Of a stretch of DNA of 64,000 nt, positions 26,770 through 64,000 are shown one piece after another; within the stretch, counting starts at the first letter, position 1; the number at the start of each line of letters is the position of its first letter. Where the stretch lies: the NCBI RefSeq assembly GCF_045037415.1, contig NZ_CP173438.1; one strand, written 5' to 3'. Under the pieces are notes generated by a model. The model was not told the DNA's origin. It saw only the letters and a list, made by a program, of their open reading frames with translations, and searched no databases. The translations under genes and the position numbers were made by a program. This DNA comes from Escherichia coli (lineage in GTDB: Bacteria; Pseudomonadota; Gammaproteobacteria; Enterobacterales; Enterobacteriaceae).

Positions 26770-26820
26770 TACTGTAGTCGAGAGCGCGTATGCGTGATTT
26801 GATTAACTGGAGCGAGACCG

Positions 26821-32060: not shown

Positions 32061-32893
32061 TGCCGATGTTTCTCTTTTTACGCCGTTTACGCCATTCACC
32101 CGCCGCGTTTTGCGGGTTGATAATTATCCTGTTATTGATGCTAATTGCGCTCTTCGCGCCGTGGCTGGCACCTCACGATCCTAACTGGCAGGATGCGGCG
32201 GCGCGATTACAAGCACCGAGTCGTCAGCACTGGCTCGGCACTGACAGTTACGGGCGAGACCTACTTTCACGTTTAATCTACGGCAGCCGCCCGGCACTGG
32301 GGCTGGTGGCATTGGTGACAATCATTACACTCCCGGTCGGTCTGCTGATTGGCATTTTAGCCGGGTACTACGGCGGCTGGCTGGAACGCGTGCTGATGCG
32401 TTTTACTGACATAGTAATGTCAATGCCGCGTTTAATTCTGGCTTTTGCTTTTGTTGCCATGCTGGGGCCGGGGCTGGTTAACGGCGCACTGGCCCTTGCA
32501 TTAACCACCTGGCCTGCTTATGCGCGTCAGGCACGGAGTGAGATCCAACGTCTGCGACACAGTGATTATCTTGCCGCCGCAGAAATGATGGGCATCCGCG
32601 GCAGGCGTCTGCTGGCTGGTCATATTTTGCCATTGTGCCTGCCATCTGCCATTGTCCGTCTGGCGCTGGATTTAGCGGGTATCATTCTGGCGGCTGCTGG
32701 TCTGGGTTTTCTTGGGCTTGGTGCTCGCCCGCCAATGGCGGAATGGGGAGCCATGATCGCCGACGGTATGCAGGTCATTTTTGATCAATGGTGGATTGCC
32801 GCCGCTCCCGGCGCAATTATCTTAATTGCCAGTCTGGCCTTTAATCTGCTGGGTGATGGCTTGCGCGATGTTCTGGAGCCTCAACATGACTGA
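32060..32893 (+). CDS. ABC transporter permease (DppC/NikC-like), 277 aa
   Basis: Multi-TM; start overlaps the previous stop. Confidence 0.85.
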   Translation: MPMFLFLRRLRHSPAAFCGLIIILLLMLIALFAPWLAPHDPNWQDAAARLQAPSRQHWLGTDSYGRDLLSRLIYGSRPALGLVALVTIITLPVGLLIGILAGYYGGWLERVLMRFTDIVMSMPRLILAFAFVAMLGPGLVNGALALALTTWPAYARQARSEIQRLRHSDYLAAAEMMGIRGRRLLAGHILPLCLPSAIVRLALDLAGIILAAAGLGFLGLGARPPMAEWGAMIADGMQVIFDQWWIAAAPGAIILIASLAFNLLGDGLRDVLEPQHD

Positions 32894-34523: not shown

Positions 34524-35213
34524 ATGAAAAAAATTATCACTTTGATGTTGTTTTTGACATTCTTTGCCCACGCGAACGACTCCGAGCCTGGCAGCCAGTA
34601 TTTAAAGGCAGCAGAGGCCGGAAACCGACGCGCACAATATTTTCTTGCCGACAGCTGGTTTAGCTCCGGCGATTTGAGCAAAGCCGAATATTGGGCACAG
34701 AAAGCCGCCGACAGCGGTGATGCCGATGCCTGCGCGCTGTTGGCGCAGATCAAAATCACCAATCCGGTCAGTCTGGACTATCCACAAGCAAAAGTGCTTG
34801 CCGAGAAAGCAGCGCAAGCGGGCAGTAAAGAAGGTGAAGTAACGCTGGCGCATATTCTGGTAAATACGCAAGCGGGTAAACCGGATTATCCAAAGGCGAT
34901 TTCGCTGTTAGAAAACGCCTCGGAAGATCTGGAGAACGACTCTGCCGTCGATGCCCAAATGCTGCTTGGTTTGATTTACGCCAACGGCGTGGGCATTAAG
35001 GCCGACGATGACAAAGCAACCTGGTATTTCAAACGTAGCTCTGCGATTTCCCGAACCGGTTATTCCGAATACTGGGCGGGAATGATGTTCTTAAACGGTG
35101 AAGAGGGTTTTATCGAGAAGAATAAACAAAAGGCGCTGCACTGGTTGAATCTGAGCTGTATGGAAGGATTTGATACCGGTTGTGAAGAGTTTGAAAAATT
35201 AACTAACGGTTAA
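34524..35213 (+). CDS. yjcO: YjcO, Sel1-repeat secreted protein (229 aa)
   Basis: ATG at 34524 giving MKKIITLMLFLTFFAHA signal peptide and Sel1/TPR-like repeats. Confidence 0.88.
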   Translation: MKKIITLMLFLTFFAHANDSEPGSQYLKAAEAGNRRAQYFLADSWFSSGDLSKAEYWAQKAADSGDADACALLAQIKITNPVSLDYPQAKVLAEKAAQAGSKEGEVTLAHILVNTQAGKPDYPKAISLLENASEDLENDSAVDAQMLLGLIYANGVGIKADDDKATWYFKRSSAISRTGYSEYWAGMMFLNGEEGFIEKNKQKALHWLNLSCMEGFDTGCEEFEKLTNG

Positions 35214-35215
35214 GG

Positions 35216-35660
35216 TAGGCGCAGCAAACGTCGCATCAGGCATTGATGTCGGATGCGGCGTAAACGCCTTATCCGACCTACAAAAATCACGCCAAATCAG
35301 GCTATTGCGCTGTCTGACGTAGGCCTGATAAGACACGTCAGCATCGCATCAGACATTGATGCCGGATGCGGCGTAAACGCCTTATCCGACCTACAAAAAT
35401 CACGCCAAATCAGGCTATTGCGCTGTCTGGCGTAGGCCTGATAAGACGCGGCAAGCGTCGCATCAGGCGTTGATGTCGGATGCGGCGTAAACGCCTTATC
35501 CGACCTACAAAAATCACGCCAAATCAGGCTATTGCGCTGTCTGGCGTAGGCCTGATAAGACGCGTTAAGCGTCGCATCAGGCGTTGATGTCGGATGCGGC
35601 GTAAACGCCTTATCCGACCTACAAAAATCACGCTACATCAGGCTATTACTCAGTCAGGCA
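35216..35660. repeat. BIME/REP cluster: four tandem copies of a 114-124 bp composite REP unit
   Basis: GGATGCGGCGTAAACGCCTTATCCGACCTAC recurs at 35240, 35364, 35478 and 35592, each followed by GTAGGCCTGATAAGAC...GCGTCGCATCAG. Confidence 0.9.
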
Positions 35661-35701
35661 TCCACACATTGCCGGGTGGATATCCCCCCGGCAATCTTCA
35701 A

Positions 35702-37015
35702 TTACTGATCTGCTGTTTTATCAAATTTGCCCAACATTTCACGCTCGTAGGCCAGCGCTTTTTTACGGTCAAATTTGTGTTCCCACTTGGCAATCACCAG
35801 CACCGCCAGCGCATTACCCACCACGTTCAGCGCAGTACGCGCCATATCGAGGATACGGTCAACACCGGCAATAAACGCCAGACCTTCCAGCGGAATACCT
35901 ACGCTACCCAGCGTTGCCAGCAGCACCACAAACGACACGCCCGGCACGCCAGCAATCCCTTTCGAGGTCACCATCAGCGTCAGCACCAGAATGATTTCCT
36001 GCCAGATGGACAGGTCAATGCCATACAGCTGAGCGATGAAAATAGCGGCAATACTTTGATACAGCGTCGAACCATCAAGGTTAAAAGAGTAACCGGTCGG
36101 CACCACGAAACTGGTGATCGACGCCGGTGCACCGTAGGCTTCCATCTTCTCAATAATTCGCGGCAGCACGCTTTCAGAACTGGCAGTAGAGTACGCCAGA
36201 ATCAGCTCATCTTTCAGAATACGAATCAGGATCCAGACACTTAACCCGCACAGGCGCGCCACAATTCCCAGTACGACCAGCGCGAAGAACAGAATGGCGA
36301 AATGCACCAGCAGCACCAGTTTCGCCAGTGGCCACAGAGAAGAGAAACCAAAGTTAGCCACCGTCACCGCAATCAGCGCAAACACACCCACCGGCGCATA
36401 ACGCATCACCATGTGAGTCACTTTAAACATGGTTTCAGAGATGGAGCGGAAAACGGTCACCAGCGGTTCACGATGCGTCGCGGGCAGGGATGAAAGCCCC
36501 AGACCAAACAGCACCGAGAAGAAGATGATCGGCAGCATTTCGCCTTTCGCCATCGACGCCACGATGTTCGTCGGCACCAGCGACAAAATCGTGCCCATAA
36601 TGCCGTGGGAACTGCTTTGTACCGCTTCCGTAGTGCTCTGATATTTCGAGATATCGACGGTCGCCAGCTGCGACATATCCACCCCGGCACCGGGCTGGAA
36701 GACGTTCGCCAGAGTGATCCCCAAAATGATGGCGACGGTGGTGATCACCTCGAAGTAGATAATGGTTTTCGCACCAATACGCCCGAGCTGTTTGGCATCA
36801 CCAACACCCGCGATACCCACCACCAGCGTGGAGATCACAATCGGCACAACAATCATTTTGATCAGATGGATGAAGATATCACCCGCCGGAGAGAGCAAAT
36901 TGACGACCAGCCAGTCGCGGCTGTCGCTATGGTAGTGCAGGTAGCTTCCCAGGAGAATGCCCAGCACCATAGCAAACAGAATCTGCCAGGCCAGGCTGAA
37001 TTTTATATTTTTCAT
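35702..37015 (-). CDS. gltP: GltP, glutamate/aspartate:proton symporter (437 aa)
   Basis: DAACS-family translation MKNIKFSLAWQILFAMVLGILLG... Confidence 0.93.
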   Translation of the reverse strand: MKNIKFSLAWQILFAMVLGILLGSYLHYHSDSRDWLVVNLLSPAGDIFIHLIKMIVVPIVISTLVVGIAGVGDAKQLGRIGAKTIIYFEVITTVAIILGITLANVFQPGAGVDMSQLATVDISKYQSTTEAVQSSSHGIMGTILSLVPTNIVASMAKGEMLPIIFFSVLFGLGLSSLPATHREPLVTVFRSISETMFKVTHMVMRYAPVGVFALIAVTVANFGFSSLWPLAKLVLLVHFAILFFALVVLGIVARLCGLSVWILIRILKDELILAYSTASSESVLPRIIEKMEAYGAPASITSFVVPTGYSFNLDGSTLYQSIAAIFIAQLYGIDLSIWQEIILVLTLMVTSKGIAGVPGVSFVVLLATLGSVGIPLEGLAFIAGVDRILDMARTALNVVGNALAVLVIAKWEHKFDRKKALAYEREMLGKFDKTADQ

Positions 37016-39985: not shown

Positions 39986-40064
39986 GTTGACCCCGAGACT
40001 TAACAACAACGCCAGAAAACCGACTTCAGGAAGGAATACGTCCAGAAACCACCTCTGTTCTGGC

Positions 40065-41021
40065 TTACGCCACCGTTAACTGCCCGGCGTAGAGAATGAA
40101 AAAGCGCAGCATCAACACGCCGACCAGGCTGGCCCCACATGCCGCCAGCACGGCAGGAATGCCGGAACTGCGATTGACCCACGGTTTGAGCAACATTGGC
40201 ACAATCAGCCCCAGCCCGGCGACACCAAGCCAGAACCACCACGTCCAGAAACCGCCGCCCAATGCCGCCACCAGCGCACGCACTTTACCGTCATCGCCCA
40301 GCGCCAGACCGACAAAAAACGCCACCAGCAGGAAGATTTCACCCCATACCACGGGGATTTCCATACGGTGTACAAAGTGCGCTTCCGTGGAATGCGGGTT
40401 ACTGCGTTGGCGTATCGCCATGGCGATCAGCGCCACCGCCGCACCGGACGAGATGCCGGAGAAGAGGAACAGCACCGGCAGGATCGGGTTATTGAGGAAC
40501 GGATACGATTTCAGCGCCGACAGCAGAAAGCCGGTATAAGCCCCCAACAACACCGCCAGCACCAGCATCAATGTTTCCAGTCCGCGATGAACGGGCGTCA
40601 GCAGGCTCAAGACCTTTTGCACGATCCCCAGCTTCGGCAACCAGCGTTGTTGCAGGGCAAGCAAATCATGTTCAAAGATTTTCGCCAGCCACAGCACCAG
40701 CACCACCATGTAAAGCTGAAACAGCATCACCCCCATCGACATCACCGAGGTAAAACTGTAGTGGAACATCAGCTTCCAGAAGGTCCACGGTCTTGTCAGG
40801 TGGAAGACGAGGATCAACAGACCGAGGATCACCGCGCCAGGCCCGACAATCAGCGTGGTGCGCAGCAACGTACTGTCTGCACCGCCTGCCTGCGGGTAGA
40901 AGCGACGTAACAGCACGGCCAGTGTCACCAGACCGGCAGAAATACCAATCAAAAACAGGTAGATGGCAATCGGCCAGTCCCACACCAGCGATTCAAAATG
41001 AAATGCGGAAGTCTGCGTCAT
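40065..41021 (-). CDS. nrfD: NrfD, membrane quinol-oxidising subunit (318 aa)
   Basis: Multi-TM NrfD/PsrC family. Confidence 0.92.
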   Translation of the reverse strand: MTQTSAFHFESLVWDWPIAIYLFLIGISAGLVTLAVLLRRFYPQAGGADSTLLRTTLIVGPGAVILGLLILVFHLTRPWTFWKLMFHYSFTSVMSMGVMLFQLYMVVLVLWLAKIFEHDLLALQQRWLPKLGIVQKVLSLLTPVHRGLETLMLVLAVLLGAYTGFLLSALKSYPFLNNPILPVLFLFSGISSGAAVALIAMAIRQRSNPHSTEAHFVHRMEIPVVWGEIFLLVAFFVGLALGDDGKVRALVAALGGGFWTWWFWLGVAGLGLIVPMLLKPWVNRSSGIPAVLAACGASLVGVLMLRFFILYAGQLTVA

Positions 41022-41690
41022 TGGCTCACCTCCCCGTATTTAAACGGTACGCGGTACAGCTTCGGTTTGGTGCCCAGCGCCAGCTTGTAGCGGTAAGTGG
41101 GCTTCTGGCGCAGCAGTTGCGAAATCTCACTGTTGGGATCGTCCAGATTGCCAAACGTCAGCGCCTTCGTCGGGCAAGCTTCAACGCACGCGGGCAGCTT
41201 ACCGGCCTGCAAATGGGTCTTACGGCAGAAATCGCATTTGTCCGCCGTCTTCGTGACCGGATGGATAAAGCGCACGCGGTACGGACAGGCGGCGATGCAG
41301 TACTGACAACCGACGCAGAGATCCGGATTAACATCGACAATCCCACTGGCAGCGTCGCGAAAAGACGCACCGGTCGGGCAGACGTCAACGCACGGCGCAT
41401 GATCGCAGTGCTGGCAAGACTTACGGAAGAAGCGATATTTCACATCAGGAAATTCGCCCTGCGGCTCGCTACGAATAATCGTCAGGCGCGAGACGCCTTC
41501 CGGCACCTTGTTCACTTTCCGACAAGCATCCATACAGGCGGTACAGCCGATGCATAACGACTCGTCATGCACCATGCCGTAACGCACCCCATTGATATTC
41601 AACGTTTTCGCCACCACGCGCCCTGCGGTGCCGCTGACGGCGGCCAGCACACCGACGCCGGTGAGAAACTGGCGACGAGAACCAGGTCAT
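41018..41690 (-). CDS. nrfC: NrfC, 4Fe-4S ferredoxin-type subunit with Tat signal; apparent +1 frameshift at codon 4 in this sequence
   Basis: Four CxxCxxCxxxCP clusters; the body frame encodes [20 protein letters not shown] but the ATG (41690-41688) is in a different frame; the span is 673 nt rather than a multiple of 3. Confidence 0.8.
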
Positions 41691-42253
41691 GGCTGCTCCT
41701 TAAGCAACGGAACAGACGCCGGGTTAAAGTTCGGATTGGTGCGCTGATCGCTGTGGCAATCGACGCAAATCTTAATCCGTCCTTTGTCACTTAACGTCTG
41801 CATCGTATCTTGCTGTGGATGCAGGGAATGGCAGCTGGCGCACGCCACTTTGGTTACGTGGACATCGTGCGGCCAGAATGCTTTTTGCAACTGTTCCGGC
41901 AGATGGCAGGACATACAGACGCTGTTCTGCTCTCCAACCTTGTACATCGGCTCGTTAAAGCGCATCACATCTTTCACCCCTTCGCGGTGTTGCGGTGATG
42001 GCTGGCCGTGACAGTTGGTGCAGGTGACCGGCAGTTTGTTATTCGGGTTGATAACGGAAGCATGTTTGCCATGCATACCTTCGGTATCTGGCTTATGACA
42101 GTCCAGACAGGCGGCATCCGGGTTACGCTGCTGGGTAACTTCGTAGCGATCACCAGATGCCTGCGCCGCAGGGGTAGCGGTAATTCCGTTCAGGCTCCAC
42201 AACAGGCCCGACGCCAGCACCCCGGCAGTTAATAACGAACGTAATACGCTCAT
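41687..42253 (-). CDS. nrfB: NrfB, pentaheme c-type cytochrome (188 aa)
   Basis: Five CxxCH motifs (CLDCH, CTNCH, CMSCH, CASCH, CVDCH); start at MSVLRS. Confidence 0.93.
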
Positions 42254-42297: not shown

Positions 42298-43740
<1,443 letters not shown>

Positions 43741-50408: not shown

Positions 50409-52058
50409 TTACTGATTTTCCTCAATCAGCAACGCTTCAAGCAAATCGAGATCGTGCAGTAATTTTTGCAGCGTTTCGTTACTGATCTCCCGCGTGGCGC
50501 GCAGGTGGTACAGTTCAGCACGTTCAGAACGCAATGCCGCCAGACGGAAGCGACGCTCCAGGTTCTCTTCCAGGATTGAACTTTCTACATCATTACGTCC
50601 ATCGGCGCGACGACGCAGGTTACCAATGACGCGAGAACTAACCTCTGTGAGCAGCTGGTTATCGATATTCTCTTCGGTATCCGCCGCCAAACGCTCCTCC
50701 ATTTTCTGGATCGCCACAATCGCCACTTCTGCCGTTGCCGCTCGTGCAATACGTTCCTCTTTCAATTGTTGCGAATGGTCCGCGACTTCTATGTGTTGTA
50801 GCAGAATAGGCAACATCACCACGCCGACAAACAACGAGAAGAGAATGACGCCAGCCGCCAGGAACACCAACTCATAGCGCGCAGGGAAGACGTTACCATC
50901 CGGCAAGAGAAGCGGGATAGAGAGCACACCGGCCAGAGTGATCGCCCCACGCACCCCGGCGAAAGACGCGATCAGGATTTCTCGTGTAGTCCACGAACCA
51001 AACTCCATCGGCTTCTTCTTCAGGAAGCGGTTGCTGAACTTTTTCATCGTCCACAGCCAGCCGAAACGGACCAGCATCAGCGCCGCATATATCAGAATAA
51101 TATCGGTAAACAGCATCCAGATTTCGACGTTAGGATCGATTTCTGCCGCCATCAGCGACGTCTCCAGAATCCCCGGCAACTGCAGACCTAACAGCAGGAA
51201 CACCATGCCGTTAAAGACAAATTCCAGCATCGCCCAGGTGCTGTTTGCGCGCAGGCGCATTGCCAGCGGCGCACGGCGCATCACACCGGAGCGGGTGATG
51301 GTCATCCCGGCGGCAACCGCAGCGAGGATGCCGGAAACGCCAATATGTTCCGCAATCAGATAAGAAGCGAATGGCAGCAAGAACAGCAGAACGATCTGCG
51401 TCGCGGGTTCATCACCGCCCCAGCGGCTGAGGAATCGCAGCGAGCGACCATACAGCCAGCTCACCACAAAACCGGCGAGAATACCGCCTATTGCCACTTT
51501 CATAAATTCGACCGTCGCACCGCCGACGGTGAAGATCATTGTCCCCATCGCCACTGCCACGGCAAACTTCAACGACACCAGGCCGGAGGCGTCATTCATC
51601 AACGCTTCGCCCTGCAAAATGCCCATGATTTTTTTCGGGATGCGCCCCTCGCCAACAATCCCGGAGAGCGCTACAGCATCGGTCGGAGAAAGCACCGCAG
51701 CCAGCGCAAAGGCGGGGATCAGCGGAATGCCCGGCACCACCCAGTAAATAAGGAAGCCAATGCCGACCACGGTGACCACCACCAGCGCCAGCGCGAGGCC
51801 GAAAATCTCTCGCCCATGTTCGAGAAATTCACGGGTCGGCGTTTTCCAACCATCAGCGAACAGCAACGGCGGGATAAACAAGACTAAAAAGAGTTCAGGA
51901 TCAAACTCCACATGCAAACCAAACGTCGGCCACGCCAGTAGCGCACCGATGGCGATTTGCATAAGCGGAAGCGGGATCTGAAAGGGCATGACACGAGTGA
52001 CCACCCCGGACAGCGAGACCACGAGGGTCATTATCAGTATGGTGAAGAAGATTTCCAT
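50409..52058 (-). CDS. yjcE: YjcE, Na+/H+ exchanger, CPA1 family (549 aa)
   Basis: Polytopic translation MEIFFTILIMTLVVSLSGVVTRVMPFQIPL... Confidence 0.92.
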   Translation of the reverse strand: MEIFFTILIMTLVVSLSGVVTRVMPFQIPLPLMQIAIGALLAWPTFGLHVEFDPELFLVLFIPPLLFADGWKTPTREFLEHGREIFGLALALVVVTVVGIGFLIYWVVPGIPLIPAFALAAVLSPTDAVALSGIVGEGRIPKKIMGILQGEALMNDASGLVSLKFAVAVAMGTMIFTVGGATVEFMKVAIGGILAGFVVSWLYGRSLRFLSRWGGDEPATQIVLLFLLPFASYLIAEHIGVSGILAAVAAGMTITRSGVMRRAPLAMRLRANSTWAMLEFVFNGMVFLLLGLQLPGILETSLMAAEIDPNVEIWMLFTDIILIYAALMLVRFGWLWTMKKFSNRFLKKKPMEFGSWTTREILIASFAGVRGAITLAGVLSIPLLLPDGNVFPARYELVFLAAGVILFSLFVGVVMLPILLQHIEVADHSQQLKEERIARAATAEVAIVAIQKMEERLAADTEENIDNQLLTEVSSRVIGNLRRRADGRNDVESSILEENLERRFRLAALRSERAELYHLRATREISNETLQKLLHDLDLLEALLIEENQ

Positions 52059-56567: not shown

Positions 56568-56996
56568 TGCTATCAATTCCCTGCCTGTTTATACCCGGTT
56601 ATTGCAAGGTGAAACCCTGGCTACCGACGTCTTTAGATAAATCTTACGGTATAAATAGCACTTTTGCCTGATATAAAATTGAGAACCTTTTTAATCGTCA
56701 CCAGGATGACGATAATTCATTGATCTTAAAAATTAATCACCTTCAGGAATGCAGAGGCGGCGGGAAGATATACCCTTAATGCCGCTGAAAAAACACATAA
56801 TCTGTACGGCAATAAAAGTCACGGCCTAATCTGGCTAACAAACAACCAATTGTGATATAGTTCACAAAATTCATGAAACAAACAGAGTGTTTCATTTTTG
56901 TGTTCTGCAAGCCCCGCGATAGCCAGAGTGTATCACGCCTCCCGTGAACAACGCCGCGCTGTCCAGGGCATCAGCTCTTTTTCGAGGAATTGTTTG

Positions 56997-57278
56997 ATGG
57001 CTACCCTCACCACTGGCGTGGTTCTTCTTCGCTGGCAACTTCTTAGTGCCGTAATGATGTTTCTGGCCAGCACGCTCAACATCCGTTTTCGTCGGGCTGA
57101 TTATGTCGGGCTTGCAGTGATCAGCAGCGGTTTGGGCGTAGTTTCCGCCTGCTGGTTCGCAATGGGGTTGCTTGGCATCACAATGGCGGATATCACCGCC
57201 ATCTGGCACAACATCGAGTCGGTGATGATAGAAGAGATGAATCAGACACCGCCACAATGGCCAATGATTTTGACTTGA
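56997..57278 (+). CDS. yjcB: YjcB, small inner-membrane protein (93 aa)
   Basis: ATG at 56997 giving MATLTTGVVLLRWQLL...; the six-frame ORF extends 33 codons upstream. Confidence 0.8.
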   Translation: MATLTTGVVLLRWQLLSAVMMFLASTLNIRFRRADYVGLAVISSGLGVVSACWFAMGLLGITMADITAIWHNIESVMIEEMNQTPPQWPMILT

Positions 57279-57284
57279 TATGTA

Positions 57285-57314
57285 GAAGCCTCCATAACGG
57301 AGGCTTCTTTTTTA
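57285..57314 (+). terminator. Intrinsic terminator after yjcB
   Basis: GAAGCCTCC-ataac-GGAGGCTTC followed by TTTTTTAT. Confidence 0.85.
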
Positions 57315-57376
57315 TGGCTGGCAGATGCTTTAATCATCCACCTTAAAACAATATACCCTATTGTTTTAAAGACAAA

Positions 57377-57913
57377 TCAGAACGGAATATCGTCATCAAA
57401 GTCCATCGGCGGCTCGTTAGACGGCGCTGCCGGAGCGGACTGCTGCGGGCGAGACTGCGCGCCGCCGCTGAACTGATTGCCACCCTGCGGCTGCTGAGGC
57501 TGACCCCAACCGCCCTGCGGCTGACCACCACCGATATTGCCACCTGCAGGAGCGCCACCACCCTGACGACCACCCAGCATCTGCATGGTGCCGCCAACGT
57601 TCACCACGACTTCTGTGGTATAGCGATCCTGACCGGATTGATCGGTCCATTTGCGGGTACGCAGCTGACCTTCGATATAAACCTGAGAACCTTTACGCAG
57701 ATATTCGCTGGCTACTTCTGCCAGTTTGCCGAACAGCACAACGCGGTGCCATTCAGTCTGCTCTTTCATCTCGCCGGTGGCTTTATCACGCCAGGATTCG
57801 GAAGTAGCCAGCGTAATGTTGGCAACTGCGCCACCATTTGGCATGTAGCGTACTTCCGGGTCCTGACCCAGATTACCAACGAGAATAACCTTGTTTACGC
57901 CTCTGCTGGCCAT
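57377..57913 (-). CDS. ssb: Ssb, single-stranded DNA-binding protein (178 aa)
   Basis: OB-fold N-terminus, Gly/Gln-rich linker and the C-terminal DFDDDIPF tail. Confidence 0.97.
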
Positions 57914-58064
57914 GTTCGTGTCTCCTGAAAAAAAATCGTTCTGAATAAGTGTAAACGCGCGATTGTACCATTACCAATAGCGCTTTTACTATGTTGTGAC
58001 CTCGGTTCCGGGAAACAAACCTGGCCAGACATTGTTACACAACACTCCGGGTAATGCATTCCAA

Positions 58065-58084
58065 TACTGTATATTCATTCAGGT
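58065..58084. promoter_or_regulatory. LexA (SOS) box shared by the divergent uvrA and ssb promoters
   Basis: TACTGTATATTCATTCAGGT fits CTGT-N8-ACAG. Confidence 0.85.
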
Positions 58085-58167
58085 TAATTTGTGTCATAAT
58101 TAACCGTTTGTGATCGCCGGTAGCACCATGCCACCGGGCAAAAAAGCGTTTAATCCGGGAAAGGTGA

Positions 58168-60990
58168 ATGGATAAGATCGAAGTTCGGGGCGCCCGCACC
58201 CATAATCTCAAAAACATCAACCTCGTTATCCCCCGCGACAAGCTCATTGTCGTGACCGGGCTTTCGGGTTCTGGCAAATCCTCGCTCGCTTTCGACACCT
58301 TATATGCCGAAGGGCAGCGCCGTTACGTTGAATCCCTTTCCGCCTACGCGCGGCAGTTTCTGTCACTGATGGAGAAGCCGGACGTCGACCATATTGAGGG
58401 GCTTTCTCCTGCCATCTCAATTGAGCAGAAATCGACGTCTCATAACCCGCGCTCTACGGTGGGGACAATCACCGAAATCCACGACTATTTGCGTCTGCTG
58501 TACGCTCGCGTTGGTGAGCCGCGCTGCCCGGACCACGATGTACCGCTGGCGGCGCAAACCGTCAGTCAGATGGTGGATAACGTGTTGTCCCAGCCGGACG
58601 GCAAGCGTCTGATGCTGCTCGCGCCAATCATTAAAGAGCGCAAAGGCGAACACACCAAAACGCTGGAGAACCTGGCAAGCCAGGGTTACATCCGTGCTCG
58701 TATTGATGGCGAAGTCTGCGATCTTTCCGATCCGCCGAAACTGGAACTGCAAAAGAAACATACCATTGAAGTGGTGGTTGATCGCTTCAAAGTGCGTGAC
58801 GATCTTACCCAACGTCTTGCCGAGTCGTTTGAAACCGCGCTGGAGCTTTCCGGTGGTACCGCGGTAGTGGCGGATATGGACGACCCGAAAGCGGAAGAGC
58901 TGCTGTTCTCCGCCAACTTTGCCTGCCCGATTTGCGGTTACAGTATGCGCGAGCTGGAACCTCGCCTGTTTTCATTTAACAACCCGGCGGGAGCCTGCCC
59001 GACCTGTGACGGACTTGGCGTACAGCAATATTTCGATCCTGACCGCGTGATCCAGAATCCGGAATTATCGCTGGCTGGCGGTGCGATCCGTGGCTGGGAT
59101 CGCCGCAACTTCTATTATTTCCAGATGCTGAAATCGCTGGCAGATCACTATAAGTTCGACGTCGAAGCGCCGTGGGGCAGCCTGAGCGCGAACGTGCATA
59201 AAGTGGTGTTGTACGGTTCTGGCAAAGAAAATATTGAATTCAAATACATGAACGATCGTGGCGATACCTCCATTCGTCGTCATCCGTTCGAAGGCGTGCT
59301 GCACAATATGGAGCGCCGTTATAAAGAGACGGAATCCAGCGCGGTACGTGAAGAATTAGCCAAGTTTATCAGCAATCGTCCGTGCGCCAGCTGCGAAGGA
59401 ACCCGTCTGCGTCGGGAAGCACGCCACGTGTATGTCGAGAATACGCCGCTGCCCGCCATCTCCGACATGAGCATCGGTCATGCGATGGAATTCTTCAACA
59501 ATCTCAAACTCGCAGGTCAGCGGGCGAAGATTGCAGAAAAAATCCTTAAAGAGATCGGCGATCGTCTGAAATTCCTCGTTAACGTCGGCCTGAATTACCT
59601 GACACTTTCCCGCTCAGCAGAGACACTTTCCGGCGGTGAAGCCCAGCGTATTCGTCTGGCGAGCCAGATTGGTGCAGGCCTGGTTGGCGTGATGTACGTG
59701 CTGGATGAGCCGTCTATCGGCCTGCACCAGCGCGATAACGAGCGCCTGCTGGGTACGCTTATCCATCTGCGCGATCTCGGTAATACCGTGATTGTGGTGG
59801 AGCACGACGAAGACGCGATTCGCGCCGCTGATCATGTGATCGATATCGGTCCGGGTGCGGGTGTTCACGGCGGTGAAGTCGTCGCGGAAGGTCCGCTGGA
59901 AGCAATAATGGCGGTGCCTGAGTCGTTGACCGGGCAGTACATGAGCGGTAAACGCAAGATTGAGGTGCCGAAGAAACGCGTTCCGGCAAATCCGGAAAAA
60001 GTGCTGAAACTGACGGGCGCACGCGGCAACAACCTGAAAGACGTGACGCTGACGCTGCCGGTGGGTCTGTTTACCTGCATTACCGGAGTTTCAGGTTCCG
60101 GTAAATCAACGCTGATTAACGACACACTGTTCCCAATTGCCCAACGCCAGTTGAATGGTGCGACCATCGCCGAACCAGCACCGTATCGCGATATTCAGGG
60201 GCTGGAGCATTTCGATAAAGTGATCGATATCGACCAAAGCCCAATTGGTCGTACTCCGCGTTCTAACCCGGCGACCTATACCGGCGTGTTTACGCCTGTG
60301 CGCGAACTGTTTGCGGGCGTACCGGAATCCCGTGCGCGTGGTTATACGCCAGGACGTTTCAGCTTTAACGTTCGCGGCGGACGCTGCGAAGCCTGTCAGG
60401 GCGACGGCGTGATCAAAGTGGAGATGCACTTCCTGCCGGACATTTACGTACCGTGCGACCAGTGCAAAGGCAAACGCTATAACCGTGAAACGCTGGAGAT
60501 TAAGTACAAAGGCAAAACCATCCACGAAGTGCTGGATATGACCATCGAAGAGGCGCGTGAGTTCTTTGATGCGGTGCCAGCTCTGGCACGTAAGCTGCAA
60601 ACATTGATGGACGTTGGTCTGACGTATATTCGTCTGGGTCAGTCCGCAACCACACTTTCTGGTGGTGAAGCCCAGCGCGTGAAGCTGGCGCGTGAGCTGT
60701 CAAAACGCGGCACCGGGCAGACGCTGTATATTCTCGACGAGCCGACCACCGGTCTGCACTTCGCCGATATTCAGCAACTGCTCGACGTACTGCATAAACT
60801 GCGCGATCAGGGCAATACCATTGTGGTAATTGAGCACAATCTCGACGTGATCAAAACCGCTGACTGGATTGTCGACCTGGGACCAGAAGGCGGCAGTGGG
60901 GGCGGCGAAATCCTCGTCTCCGGTACGCCAGAAACCGTCGCAGAGTGCGAAGCTTCGCATACGGCGCGCTTCCTCAAGCCGATGCTGTAA
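58168..60990 (+). CDS. uvrA: UvrA, excinuclease ABC subunit A (940 aa)
   Basis: Two ABC ATPase modules (GLSGSGKSS and GVSGSGKST) with zinc-finger CxxC inserts. Confidence 0.97.
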
Positions 60991-60995
60991 TCGTT

Positions 60996-61024
60996 AAGGC
61001 CGCTTTCTGAGCGGCCTTCTTCTT
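60996..61024. terminator. Bidirectional terminator between uvrA and yjbR
   Basis: AAGGCCGCT-ttctga-GCGGCCTT followed by a T-rich tract. Confidence 0.75.
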
Positions 61025-61381
61025 TCAGAGTTGCACCAGCAATTTACGTTTTTCTTCCGGCAGCAAATTCACCGCCTGCTGATAAGACGCATCCACCAGA
61101 TAATAGATTTGCGAATCCGGCAGCGATCCGTCGAGATACACGGTGCTCCAGTGTGCTTTGTTCAGATGGCGGCTTGGACGCACATCGCTGTGCTGCTGAC
61201 GTAGCAGCTCCGCCAGCTCCGGGCTGGTTTTCAGCGAAACAGCTGGGCGATTTTCTACTTCTTTCACCATCGCAAACAGCACATCTTCCACTTTGATCTG
61301 CGTCGCTTTCCAGTCGTTATGCACGCTCTGTTCTGCGCCTGGTTTTGCCATGCAATATTGTAGCAACTCCAAAATGGTCAT
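61025..61381 (-). CDS. yjbR: YjbR, MmcQ/YjbR-family protein (118 aa)
   Basis: Translation MTILELLQYCMAKPGAEQSVHNDWKATQIKVEDVLFAMV... Confidence 0.88.
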   Translation of the reverse strand: MTILELLQYCMAKPGAEQSVHNDWKATQIKVEDVLFAMVKEVENRPAVSLKTSPELAELLRQQHSDVRPSRHLNKAHWSTVYLDGSLPDSQIYYLVDASYQQAVNLLPEEKRKLLVQL

Positions 61382-61384
61382 TTT

Positions 61385-61801
61385 TTACTCCCCTTGAAGT
61401 GTCGCGATGATGCGACGCGATCCGCCGTGGATGCGATGTTCCCCCAGCCAGATGCCTTGCCAGGTGCCGGTCTGAATACGCCCTTTATGCACCGGCAATA
61501 CAAGCGATGTTCCCAGCATTGAGGATTTGATATGAGAAGGCATATCGTCTGCTCCCTCATAGTCATGCTCATAATTTCCGTTGTCGGGAACGGCGCGGAG
61601 GAAAAAACGCTCCATGTCGTGGCGTACGGTGGGATCGCAGTTCTCATTAAGTGTCAGAGAGGCGGAGGTATGTTGCAGCAACAGATGCAGTAAACCGATG
61701 TTAACGCGCGGCATATCAGCCAGCTGATTCAGAATTTCATCCGTTACCAGATGAAACCCACGAGATTTGGCGCTAAGCGTGAGCGTCTTTTGATACCACA
61801 T
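61385..61801 (-). CDS. yjbQ: YjbQ, UPF0047-family protein (138 aa)
   Basis: Translation [27 protein letters not shown]... Confidence 0.88.
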
Positions 61802-61869
61802 GTGCTGCTCCTTGATAAAACTCTCTTAATCAGTTTGCAGCAAGACAGCGAAAGGATAAAGGTGTGATT

Positions 61870-61906
61870 AAAAAAACAGCATTCGGGAGAGTATTACGCT
61901 CTCCCG
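61870..61906 (-). terminator. Intrinsic terminator after aphA
   Basis: Minus-strand CGGGAGAGCGTAATACTCTCCCG hairpin followed by a T-run (plus-strand AAAAAAA at 61870-61876). Confidence 0.8.
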
Positions 61907-61911
61907 CTCTG

Positions 61912-62721
<810 letters not shown>

Positions 62722-62901
62722 TTATCTGCGGATTTGTCACATAAAAAGAGCATGATCACATTTGGAATACCTGTGCGATAAACCACACATTGCCACGGTT
62801 ATTCTGCTTACACATTCACACAATGGCACTCTTTTGGTTCTCGCAAACATTGTTCAGGGAATATACTGATGATAAATATAAATGCATTCAATGGATGATG
62901 A

Positions 62902-64000
62902 ATGAAAATATCGTGGAATTATATATTTAAGAACAAATGGCGATTTCACATTACAAGCATTTCACTTTTTCTTATCATGCTCGCGGTTTCAATCGCTTTT
63001 TTGCACTTGCGTTTTAATACCTTGTCCGGTACCGATAAAATGCGGCTTGAAATGTATAAGTCCACATTATATTCCACCATCGAGCAATTTTATGTTTTAC
63101 CCTATATGCTCTCAACAGACCATATCATCCGTCAGGCGGTAATTACGCCTGACGATATGACGTCCAGCGAACTCAATCAACGAATTGCACATTTCAATAC
63201 TCAACTCAAAACCGCAGCAATATTTATTCTGGATACCCAAGGTAAGGCCATCGCTTCTAGTAACTGGCAGGACCCCGGCAGCTATGTAGGGCAAAATTAT
63301 AGCTATCGCCCCTATTATAAACACGCCATGTCTGGCTTAAATGGACGCTTTTACGGTATTGGTAGCACTACGAATACACCGGGATTCTTCCTCTCTACAA
63401 GTATAAAAGATAAAGGAAAAATTGTCGGTGTTGTAGTAGTAAAAATAAGTCTTAATGAAATTGAAAAAGCATGGGCCGAAGGTCCTGAAAATATTATCGT
63501 GAATGATGAACATGGGATTATATTTTTAAGTTCAAAATCGCCATGGCGAATGCGAACACTGCAACCGTTACCTGTTCAGGCAAAACAAAAACTACAATCT
63601 ACCCGCCAATATAGTCTCGACAATCTTTTACCGGCGGATTATTATCCCTGTTATACCGTGAGCAATTTTACTTTCCTGAAAGATAAAAAAGAACAACTCT
63701 GTTTATTCCCGCAATATTATACGCAACAAATAGCCATTCCAGAATTTAACTGGAAAATGACAATTATGGTCCCCTTAGATAACCTGTACTGGTCATGGGC
63801 TATTTCGTTAGTCATTACACTAATTATTTACCTGCTGTTTTTGTTATTTATTAAATACTGGAGAATGCGATCTCATGCACAACAATTATTAACACTGGCG
63901 AATGAAACATTAGAAAAACAGGTTAAAGAGCGTACATCTGCCCTGGAATTGATCAATCAAAAATTAATACAGGAGATAAAAGAGCGCAGTCAGGCTGAAC
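62902..64000 (+). CDS. Sensor histidine kinase with periplasmic Cache-type domain, 5'-complete but truncated by the window end (at least 366 codons)
   Basis: ATG at 62902 followed by 366 stop-free codons in AT-rich DNA; TM helix, periplasmic region with YRPYYKHAMSG, second TM helix (WAISLVITLIIYLLFLLFI), then coiled-coil leading into ...IQEIKERSQAE. Confidence 0.7.
   Translation, partial: MKISWNYIFKNKWRFHITSISLFLIMLAVSIAFLHLRFNTLSGTDKMRLEMYKSTLYSTIEQFYVLPYMLSTDHIIRQAVITPDDMTSSELNQRIAHFNTQLKTAAIFILDTQGKAIASSNWQDPGSYVGQNYSYRPYYKHAMSGLNGRFYGIGSTTNTPGFFLSTSIKDKGKIVGVVVVKISLNEIEKAWAEGPENIIVNDEHGIIFLSSKSPWRMRTLQPLPVQAKQKLQSTRQYSLDNLLPADYYPCYTVSNFTFLKDKKEQLCLFPQYYTQQIAIPEFNWKMTIMVPLDNLYWSWAISLVITLIIYLLFLLFIKYWRMRSHAQQLLTLANETLEKQVKERTSALELINQKLIQEIKERSQAE

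Follow-up and report, generated by a model that had tools for sequence, protein, structure and literature searches.

Background

The stretch of Escherichia coli DNA analysed here, 64,000 nucleotides (64 kb) in length and henceforth called the window, carries the nrf operon on its minus strand, with nrfA (42298-43734) followed by nrfB, nrfC, nrfD (40065-41021) and then nrfE. The nrfC gene as it stands in the window (41018-41690, minus strand) measures 673 nt from its ATG to its stop, and its frame is broken after codon 3. This raises the question of whether the strain has lost NrfC, and with it formate-dependent nitrite reduction, through the insertion of a single base, or whether that base belongs to the assembly rather than to the organism. 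From a comparison of the sequence with public genomes we propose that the extra base is very probably a long-read consensus error at a methylated Eco31I/EcoMI site, and not a real loss of the gene.

The extra base in nrfC

Read from 41690, the minus strand gives ATG ACC TGG TTC TCG TCG CCA GTT, in which the segment ATGACCTGGT[T]CTCG has one T above the reference, corresponding to an extra A at 41680/41681 on the plus strand. We aligned the window to four ST131-type genomes, and thereafter its positions 1-57385 to the Illumina-polished ST131 genome WP3-S18-ESBL-08. The alignments to ST131 genomes identify one A of 41680-41681 as surplus, within the sequence GAGAACC (41677-41683, plus strand), an Eco31I/EcoMI site with an insertion that takes the form GAG[A]ACC on the plus strand and GGT[T]CTC on the gene strand. 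A first-pass annotation of the window, made from the sequence alone, had suspected an extra base in the GAGAACC/GGTTCTC run near 41680, and the alignments show that it had located the base correctly: nrfC differs from the reference gene, whose product starts MTWSRRQFL, by this single base and is otherwise identical to it.

As written, nrfC consists of two ORF pieces of 41 and 210 amino acids. The ATG-frame ORF (41565-41690) stops after 41 codons, and not after the 38 that the first-pass annotation had counted, and the body frame runs on downstream of the break as full-length NrfC, with an in-frame GTG at 41650 beginning the 210-aa piece. The preceding gene, nrfB (41687-42253, minus strand), is intact, and its TGA stop (41689-41687) overlaps the nrfC ATG (41690-41688) as ATGA. 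Direct reading upheld both the 673-nt span and the earlier remark that this ATG lies in a different frame from the nrfC body. The same TGA had been placed two codons ahead of the twin-arginine body; more exactly, two codons, for Pro and Gly, separate the TGA from the Ser of SRRQFL. The S-R-R-Q-F-L codons of the NrfC signal peptide occupy 41663-41680 (minus strand) in the body frame, and they are out of frame with the nrfC ATG only because of the extra base.

Removal of one base yields a gene of 672 nt encoding 223 amino acids, sizes that the first-pass annotation had given for nrfC and that the reference gene has exactly, and joins the twin-arginine signal of the body frame to the ATG. Translated, the repaired ORF gives exactly the reference NrfC WP_000220293.1 (672 nt, 223 aa), and the 223-aa protein matches TIGR03149, the NCBIfam equivalog model of the cytochrome c nitrite reductase Fe-S protein NrfC, with 414.1 bits (cut-off 377.6) over residues 2-222. 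Its body frame also matches the NrfC Tat signal peptide listed in a paper on extra-intestinal E. coli, which begins MTWSRRQFL. The place of the gene in nrfABCDEFG and the overlap of its start with the nrfB stop are both as in reference NrfC. After repair, the gene thus agrees with the NrfC of the NrfABCD formate-dependent nitrite reductase in sequence, Tat signal and operon position, and the window differs from the reference in that its ORF is split by the extra base.

Relative to WP3-S18-ESBL-08 the nrf operon is otherwise undamaged, except for one missense SNP in nrfA, where G on the plus strand at 42731 becomes A and Ser is replaced by Leu (ERKQ[S>L]INDLK). Across 5426 complete E. coli genomes this SNP was found only in the unrelated strain FACU 2024; it lies outside all methylation motifs of EC958 and may be a real private SNP. 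In the neighbouring nrfE, the RefSeq start at 40045 (572 aa) corresponds to a CTG codon (40043-40045), the first ATG, GTG or TTG in frame being a TTG at 40009.

A second insertion at the same motif

Exactly two indels distinguish the 64 kb of the window from ST131 genomes, both of them changing GAGACC to GAGAACC, at 41680 and at 56684, a count that covers 1-57385 against WP3-S18-ESBL-08 and 57000-64000, the latter being 100% identical to many ST131 genomes. All differences from ST131 amount to the inserted A at 41680, the inserted A at 56684, the nrfA SNP at 42731 and the position in yjcO discussed below; in this comparison the window shows no homopolymer indel. The insertions have the contexts GACGAG[A]ACCAGG in nrfC and ATTGAG[A]ACCTTT in the pdeC-yjcB spacer (GAGAACC at 56681-56687, plus strand), where the extra base has no coding effect. 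With no more than 5-6 native GAGACC sites in the window, the chance that two random insertions would both convert GAGACC to GAGAACC is roughly 1e-8 or less. The intergenic twin at 56684 is not explicable by selection on nitrite reduction. A Dcm site was also considered as the common factor, as CCTGG overlaps the nrfC insertion (ATGACCTGGT), and was rejected because the site at 56684 has no CCWGG, only GAGACC.

The recognition site and its methylation

The type IIS restriction-modification system Eco31I, known as EcoMI in ST131, recognises GAGACC/GGTCTC. In the ST131 strain EC958, 100% of the GAGACC sites carry m6A, as GAG(m6A)CC, a modification made by M1.EcoMI, which is identical to M1.Eco31I; for M2.EcoMI the predicted product, on the opposite strand, is GGT(m5C)TC (Forde et al. 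2015, PMC4659465). The base inserted in the window is a second copy of the methylated A, and opposite it directly precedes the (predicted) methylated C. The recognition sequence of this system is therefore the very site that bears the insertion, with its methylated A measured and its methylated C predicted; the published account covers the methylome and says nothing on sequencing errors or nrfC (PMC4659465). The three Eco31I genes, which in EC958 occupy 4977699-4982256, lie outside the window, and the ST131-type sequence of the window suggests that its strain carries them.

Intact GAGACC sites in the window number 3 as against 18.8 expected (5-6 when native sites are counted), and this scarcity of GAGACC/GGTCTC may reflect long-term avoidance of Eco31I-type restriction. 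The six native sites (26814, 32256, 34621, 41677, 52015 and 56681) are all GAGACC on the plus strand. Among those intact in the window, the site at 26814-26819 (plus strand) reads GAAACC in the assembly A1.S1.126, through a substitution at 26816; the one at 32256-32261 (plus strand) is free of error in every assembly compared; and the one in yjcE at 52015-52020 (plus strand) reads GAGAACC in the assembly C25, where the insertion at 52017 produces a "frameshift" of yjcE.

The remaining native site, in yjcO (34621-34626, plus strand), reads GAAACC in the window and GAGACC in A1.S1.126 and C25, and most other B2/ST131 genomes presumably read GAGACC here as well. We found GAAACC in 6 genomes, namely two Illumina-polished WP3 genomes and Esc5/12/18/31, and GAGAACC in 23 assemblies (439, 447 and 21 of the Esc series), in which yjcO is annotated as frameshifted. 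The notion that GAAACC is the ST131 consensus in yjcO was dropped, as only those 6 genomes have it. As near-identical Esc assemblies show either GAAACC or GAGAACC in yjcO, at least one of these forms must be wrong there, and each also turns up at other sites that are truly GAGACC. Read on the opposite strand, GAAACC is GGTTTC, with T in place of the m5C. C-to-T changes are known to be frequent at 5-methylcytosine, and the Illumina polishing of the WP3 genomes means that their GAAACC may reflect a genuine C-to-T change at m5C in that lineage. In the window, GAAACC (position 34623) could thus represent one more error at an Eco31I site, the third, or a genuine C-to-T change at m5C.

Downstream of yjcO, the spacer before gltP contains imperfect direct repeats (35217-35784; about 93-95% alike) that look like REP/BIME-type elements, and several alignment differences relative to C25 fall in this repeat cluster.

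Distribution among public genomes

The 5426 complete E. coli genomes of RefSeq were searched with 40-nt queries in which each 28-mer seed was forced to span the variant. The nrfC insertion was recovered in 9 of them: A1.S1.126 (Poland), 439, 446 and 463 (Taiwan), Esc2, Esc14, Esc25 and Esc26, and 98212 (Egypt), which has K-12-like alleles. PGAP labels nrfC as "frameshifted" in those insertion-bearing genomes that were checked. The intergenic insertion was recovered in 14 of the 5426, comprising A1.S1.126, 439, 446, 463 and 447, Esc3, Esc4, Esc22 and Esc29, four UID strains, and C25 (at 56683). The two sets of genomes overlap without being identical, and the Illumina-polished WP3 genomes have neither insertion.

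In the Esc series, most members of which have near-equal assemblies of about 5,156,500 bp, Esc2/14/25/26 have the nrfC insertion, Esc3/4/22/29 have the intergenic one, and Esc5/12/18 have neither. Esc26, Esc5 and Esc3 hold a private soxR SNP in common, and three Eco31I-type sites are all that separates them over 50 kb. A check in the style of the four-gamete test does not reject a tree for the Esc series alone; the conflict shows in the Taiwan set and across lineages. Of the Taiwan assemblies, again of near-equal length, 439 has the nrfC, intergenic and yjcO insertions, 446 and 463 have the nrfC and intergenic ones, and 447 has the intergenic and yjcO ones, so that if the four represent one clone the change must have arisen repeatedly. 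The same change in genomes of unrelated lineages, in nrfC of 98212 and in both yjcE (52017) and the spacer (56683) of C25, implies independent origins across lineages beyond ST131. Rather than being inherited coherently within a clade, the nrfC allele is scattered among near-identical assemblies and the unrelated 98212.

The affected assemblies

Other apparent lesions accompany the insertions in the affected assemblies. Within the same 50 kb, 439 has uvrA and yjcO annotated as frameshifted, the former through an inserted C at an AACN4CTTT site, which is the EcoMII methylation motif of ST131. A1.S1.126 has nrfE, nrfG and alsA annotated as frameshifted, alongside the GAGACC to GAAACC change at 26816, and C25 has alsA, nrfE and yjcE so annotated; ordinary homopolymer indels in A and C runs were seen in both. 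In 98212 gltP is annotated as frameshifted and avs4 is split into two overlapping ORFs, probably by another assembly frameshift. The avs4 gene belongs to an AbiGi/Avs4 defence island that lies between yjcB and ssb1 in WP3-S18-ESBL-08 (L006, 25420-31543) and in 98212 (L013, 43146-49270), and is absent from the window, where it would follow 57385. Separately, 439 (L010, 38210-39030 and 42220-45043) is missing about 1.9 kb, a loss that takes in the 5' part of ghxP, the whole of soxR and the bulk of soxS, of which just a C-terminal remnant persists.

The sequencing platform is documented for one affected genome, C25, which was assembled from Nanopore reads only (R10.4.1, native barcoding, Guppy hac, Flye, medaka, no short reads; PMC10652846). 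The assembly of the window itself was probably also made from long reads of native DNA.

Eco31I genes are present in 634 of the 5426 complete genomes (12%), and a direct search found them in 439, Esc7 and Esc25. For C25 and 98212 an indirect test was used, in which a chimeric query, joining 800 nt of the M1 gene to one piece specific to 98212 and one specific to C25, was searched and the places matched were counted per record: C25 and 98212 each gave 3, the controls K-12 MG1655, DH10B, C600 and strain C each gave 2, and Nissle 1917, a known carrier of the Eco31I system, gave 3. Every affected genome tested (439, Esc7, Esc25, C25 and 98212) thus carries an Eco31I methyltransferase, against the 12% background.

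A proposed model for the extra base and its alternatives

These observations suggest how an intact gene could come to be written as a broken one. In E. coli that carry Eco31I, each GAGACC/GGTCTC bears m6A on one strand and the predicted m5C on the other, and the altered signal over these adjacent modified bases could be called as GAGAACC, with an extra base, or as GAAACC, with the m5C taken for T. The most likely source is Oxford Nanopore sequencing of native DNA without short-read polishing. One such site happens to fall at codons 3-5 of nrfC, where the error would mimic a frameshift that cuts the Tat signal off from the body of the protein. The change in nrfC indeed lies within a motif that is methylated in ST131, the other indel of the window lies in the same motif, and the change recurs without a phylogenetic pattern. 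Most likely, then, the strain in truth has an unbroken nrfC of 223 aa and a working Nrf nitrite reductase. The first-pass annotation had left the choice between a real mutation and a homopolymer error; the evidence favours an error over a mutation, though not one of the homopolymer kind, as the run is only TT.

Such errors have precedent. Methylation-induced, strain-specific consensus errors of Nanopore sequencing are established in bacteria (Lohde et al. 2024, PMC11610573), and errors at Dcm sites have falsely grouped ST131 assemblies (MicroPIPE, PMC8235852). The present case resembles these (PMC11610573, PMC8235852) in that the errors are bound to a short motif, recur at many of its copies, are confined to strains with the matching methyltransferase, differ between assemblies of one strain, and create false alleles and false pseudogenes. 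It differs from them in that the errors described there mostly exchange one purine or one pyrimidine for another, at RACG/CGTY or CCWGG, whereas here the main form is the insertion of a single base at GAGACC/GGTCTC. Our literature search found no paper on GAGACC as a Nanopore error motif, nor any account of a genuine nrfC frameshift in ST131. Most likely the nrfC insertion adds one more case to this known class of artefact and is no feature of the organism.

Were the +1 frameshift real, translation from the nrfC ATG would end after 41 codons and formate-dependent nitrite reduction would be abolished: a product restarted at the GTG at 41650 (210 aa) would lack the twin-arginine signal and remain unexported, and NrfCD would be unable to pass electrons from quinol to NrfB/NrfA. 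The base is, after all, present in the deposited sequence, the same allele occurs in 9 RefSeq genomes as a PGAP-annotated frameshifted pseudogene, and the loss appears tolerable, in that an nrfC deletion in extra-intestinal E. coli had no significant effect on competitive fitness in mouse infection (CI 1.07). Yet an identical change affects an intergenic copy of the 6-bp motif, beyond the reach of selection on nrf; the allele itself comes and goes between near-identical assemblies and crops up in unrelated lineages; assemblies that have it also show the same change in yjcO and yjcE, along with further frameshifts, as in uvrA; and the remainder of the nrf operon is undamaged save for the nrfA missense SNP. 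We accordingly regard a real frameshift as quite unlikely. An error arising from sequence context or a homopolymer alone, independent of DNA methylation, would be in keeping with the A- and C-run indels of A1.S1.126 and C25, but the run concerned is merely two bases long and the window is devoid of homopolymer indels. Moreover, the K-12-like lineage shares the 39-nt nrfC context (98212 matches the 40-mer at 100%), yet only 9 genomes have the insertion, and the four genomes checked in this regard (439, Esc7, Esc25 and 98212) all carry Eco31I methyltransferases, against 12% overall. This points to methylation, and not the bare sequence context, as the probable trigger, and leaves a methylation-independent error very improbable.

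It is also conceivable that the Eco31I sites themselves are genuine hot spots of mutation, or are mixed within a culture, for example through a +1 slippage linked to methylation or restriction, so that isolates really differ there and nrfC is switched on and off. In favour of this, the change recurs, is site-specific and differs between near-identical isolates, and C-to-T change at m5C could explain GAAACC in the Illumina-polished WP3 genomes. However, we know of no mechanism that would insert +1 within the recognition site of a type IIS enzyme. Since Eco31I cleaves outside its site, repair of its cuts would not put an extra base within it. Furthermore, genomes without the insertion include older assemblies, such as the EC958-era ST131 references, and the frameshifts of uvrA and yjcE are implausible as real events in clinical isolates. 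A hot spot of this kind is thus extremely unlikely. A related thought is that the +1 at Eco31I sites is real, recurrent, linked to methylation or restriction at GAGACC/GGTCTC, and heterogeneous within clones, so that genes with a site close to their start, such as nrfC, yjcO and yjcE, would alternate between a working and a disrupted form. A single-base difference immediately downstream of the start codon, present in some isolates and absent from near-identical others, does recall phase-variable (contingency) genes. Such genes switch through +/-1 slippage of a repeat tract close to their 5' end, whereas nrfC has only TT, and unlike them the present change also occurs at intergenic copies of the motif and in other genes, one of the affected assemblies being Nanopore-only; real switching is, in our estimate, scarcely credible.

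Implications

If the extra base is a consensus error, as we favour, its biological effect is small, and nrfC and formate-dependent nitrite reduction are most likely normal in this strain. The wider consequence concerns the roughly 12% of complete E. coli genomes that have Eco31I, in which long-read-only assemblies can write GAGACC as GAGAACC or GAAACC. The outcome is false "frameshifted" pseudogenes in RefSeq, here nrfC, yjcO and yjcE, and false differences between isolates of a single clone, which can mislead pseudogene counts, cgMLST and outbreak typing. Such errors could be filtered by flagging single-base differences that fall inside the recognition sites of methyltransferases encoded by the genome itself.
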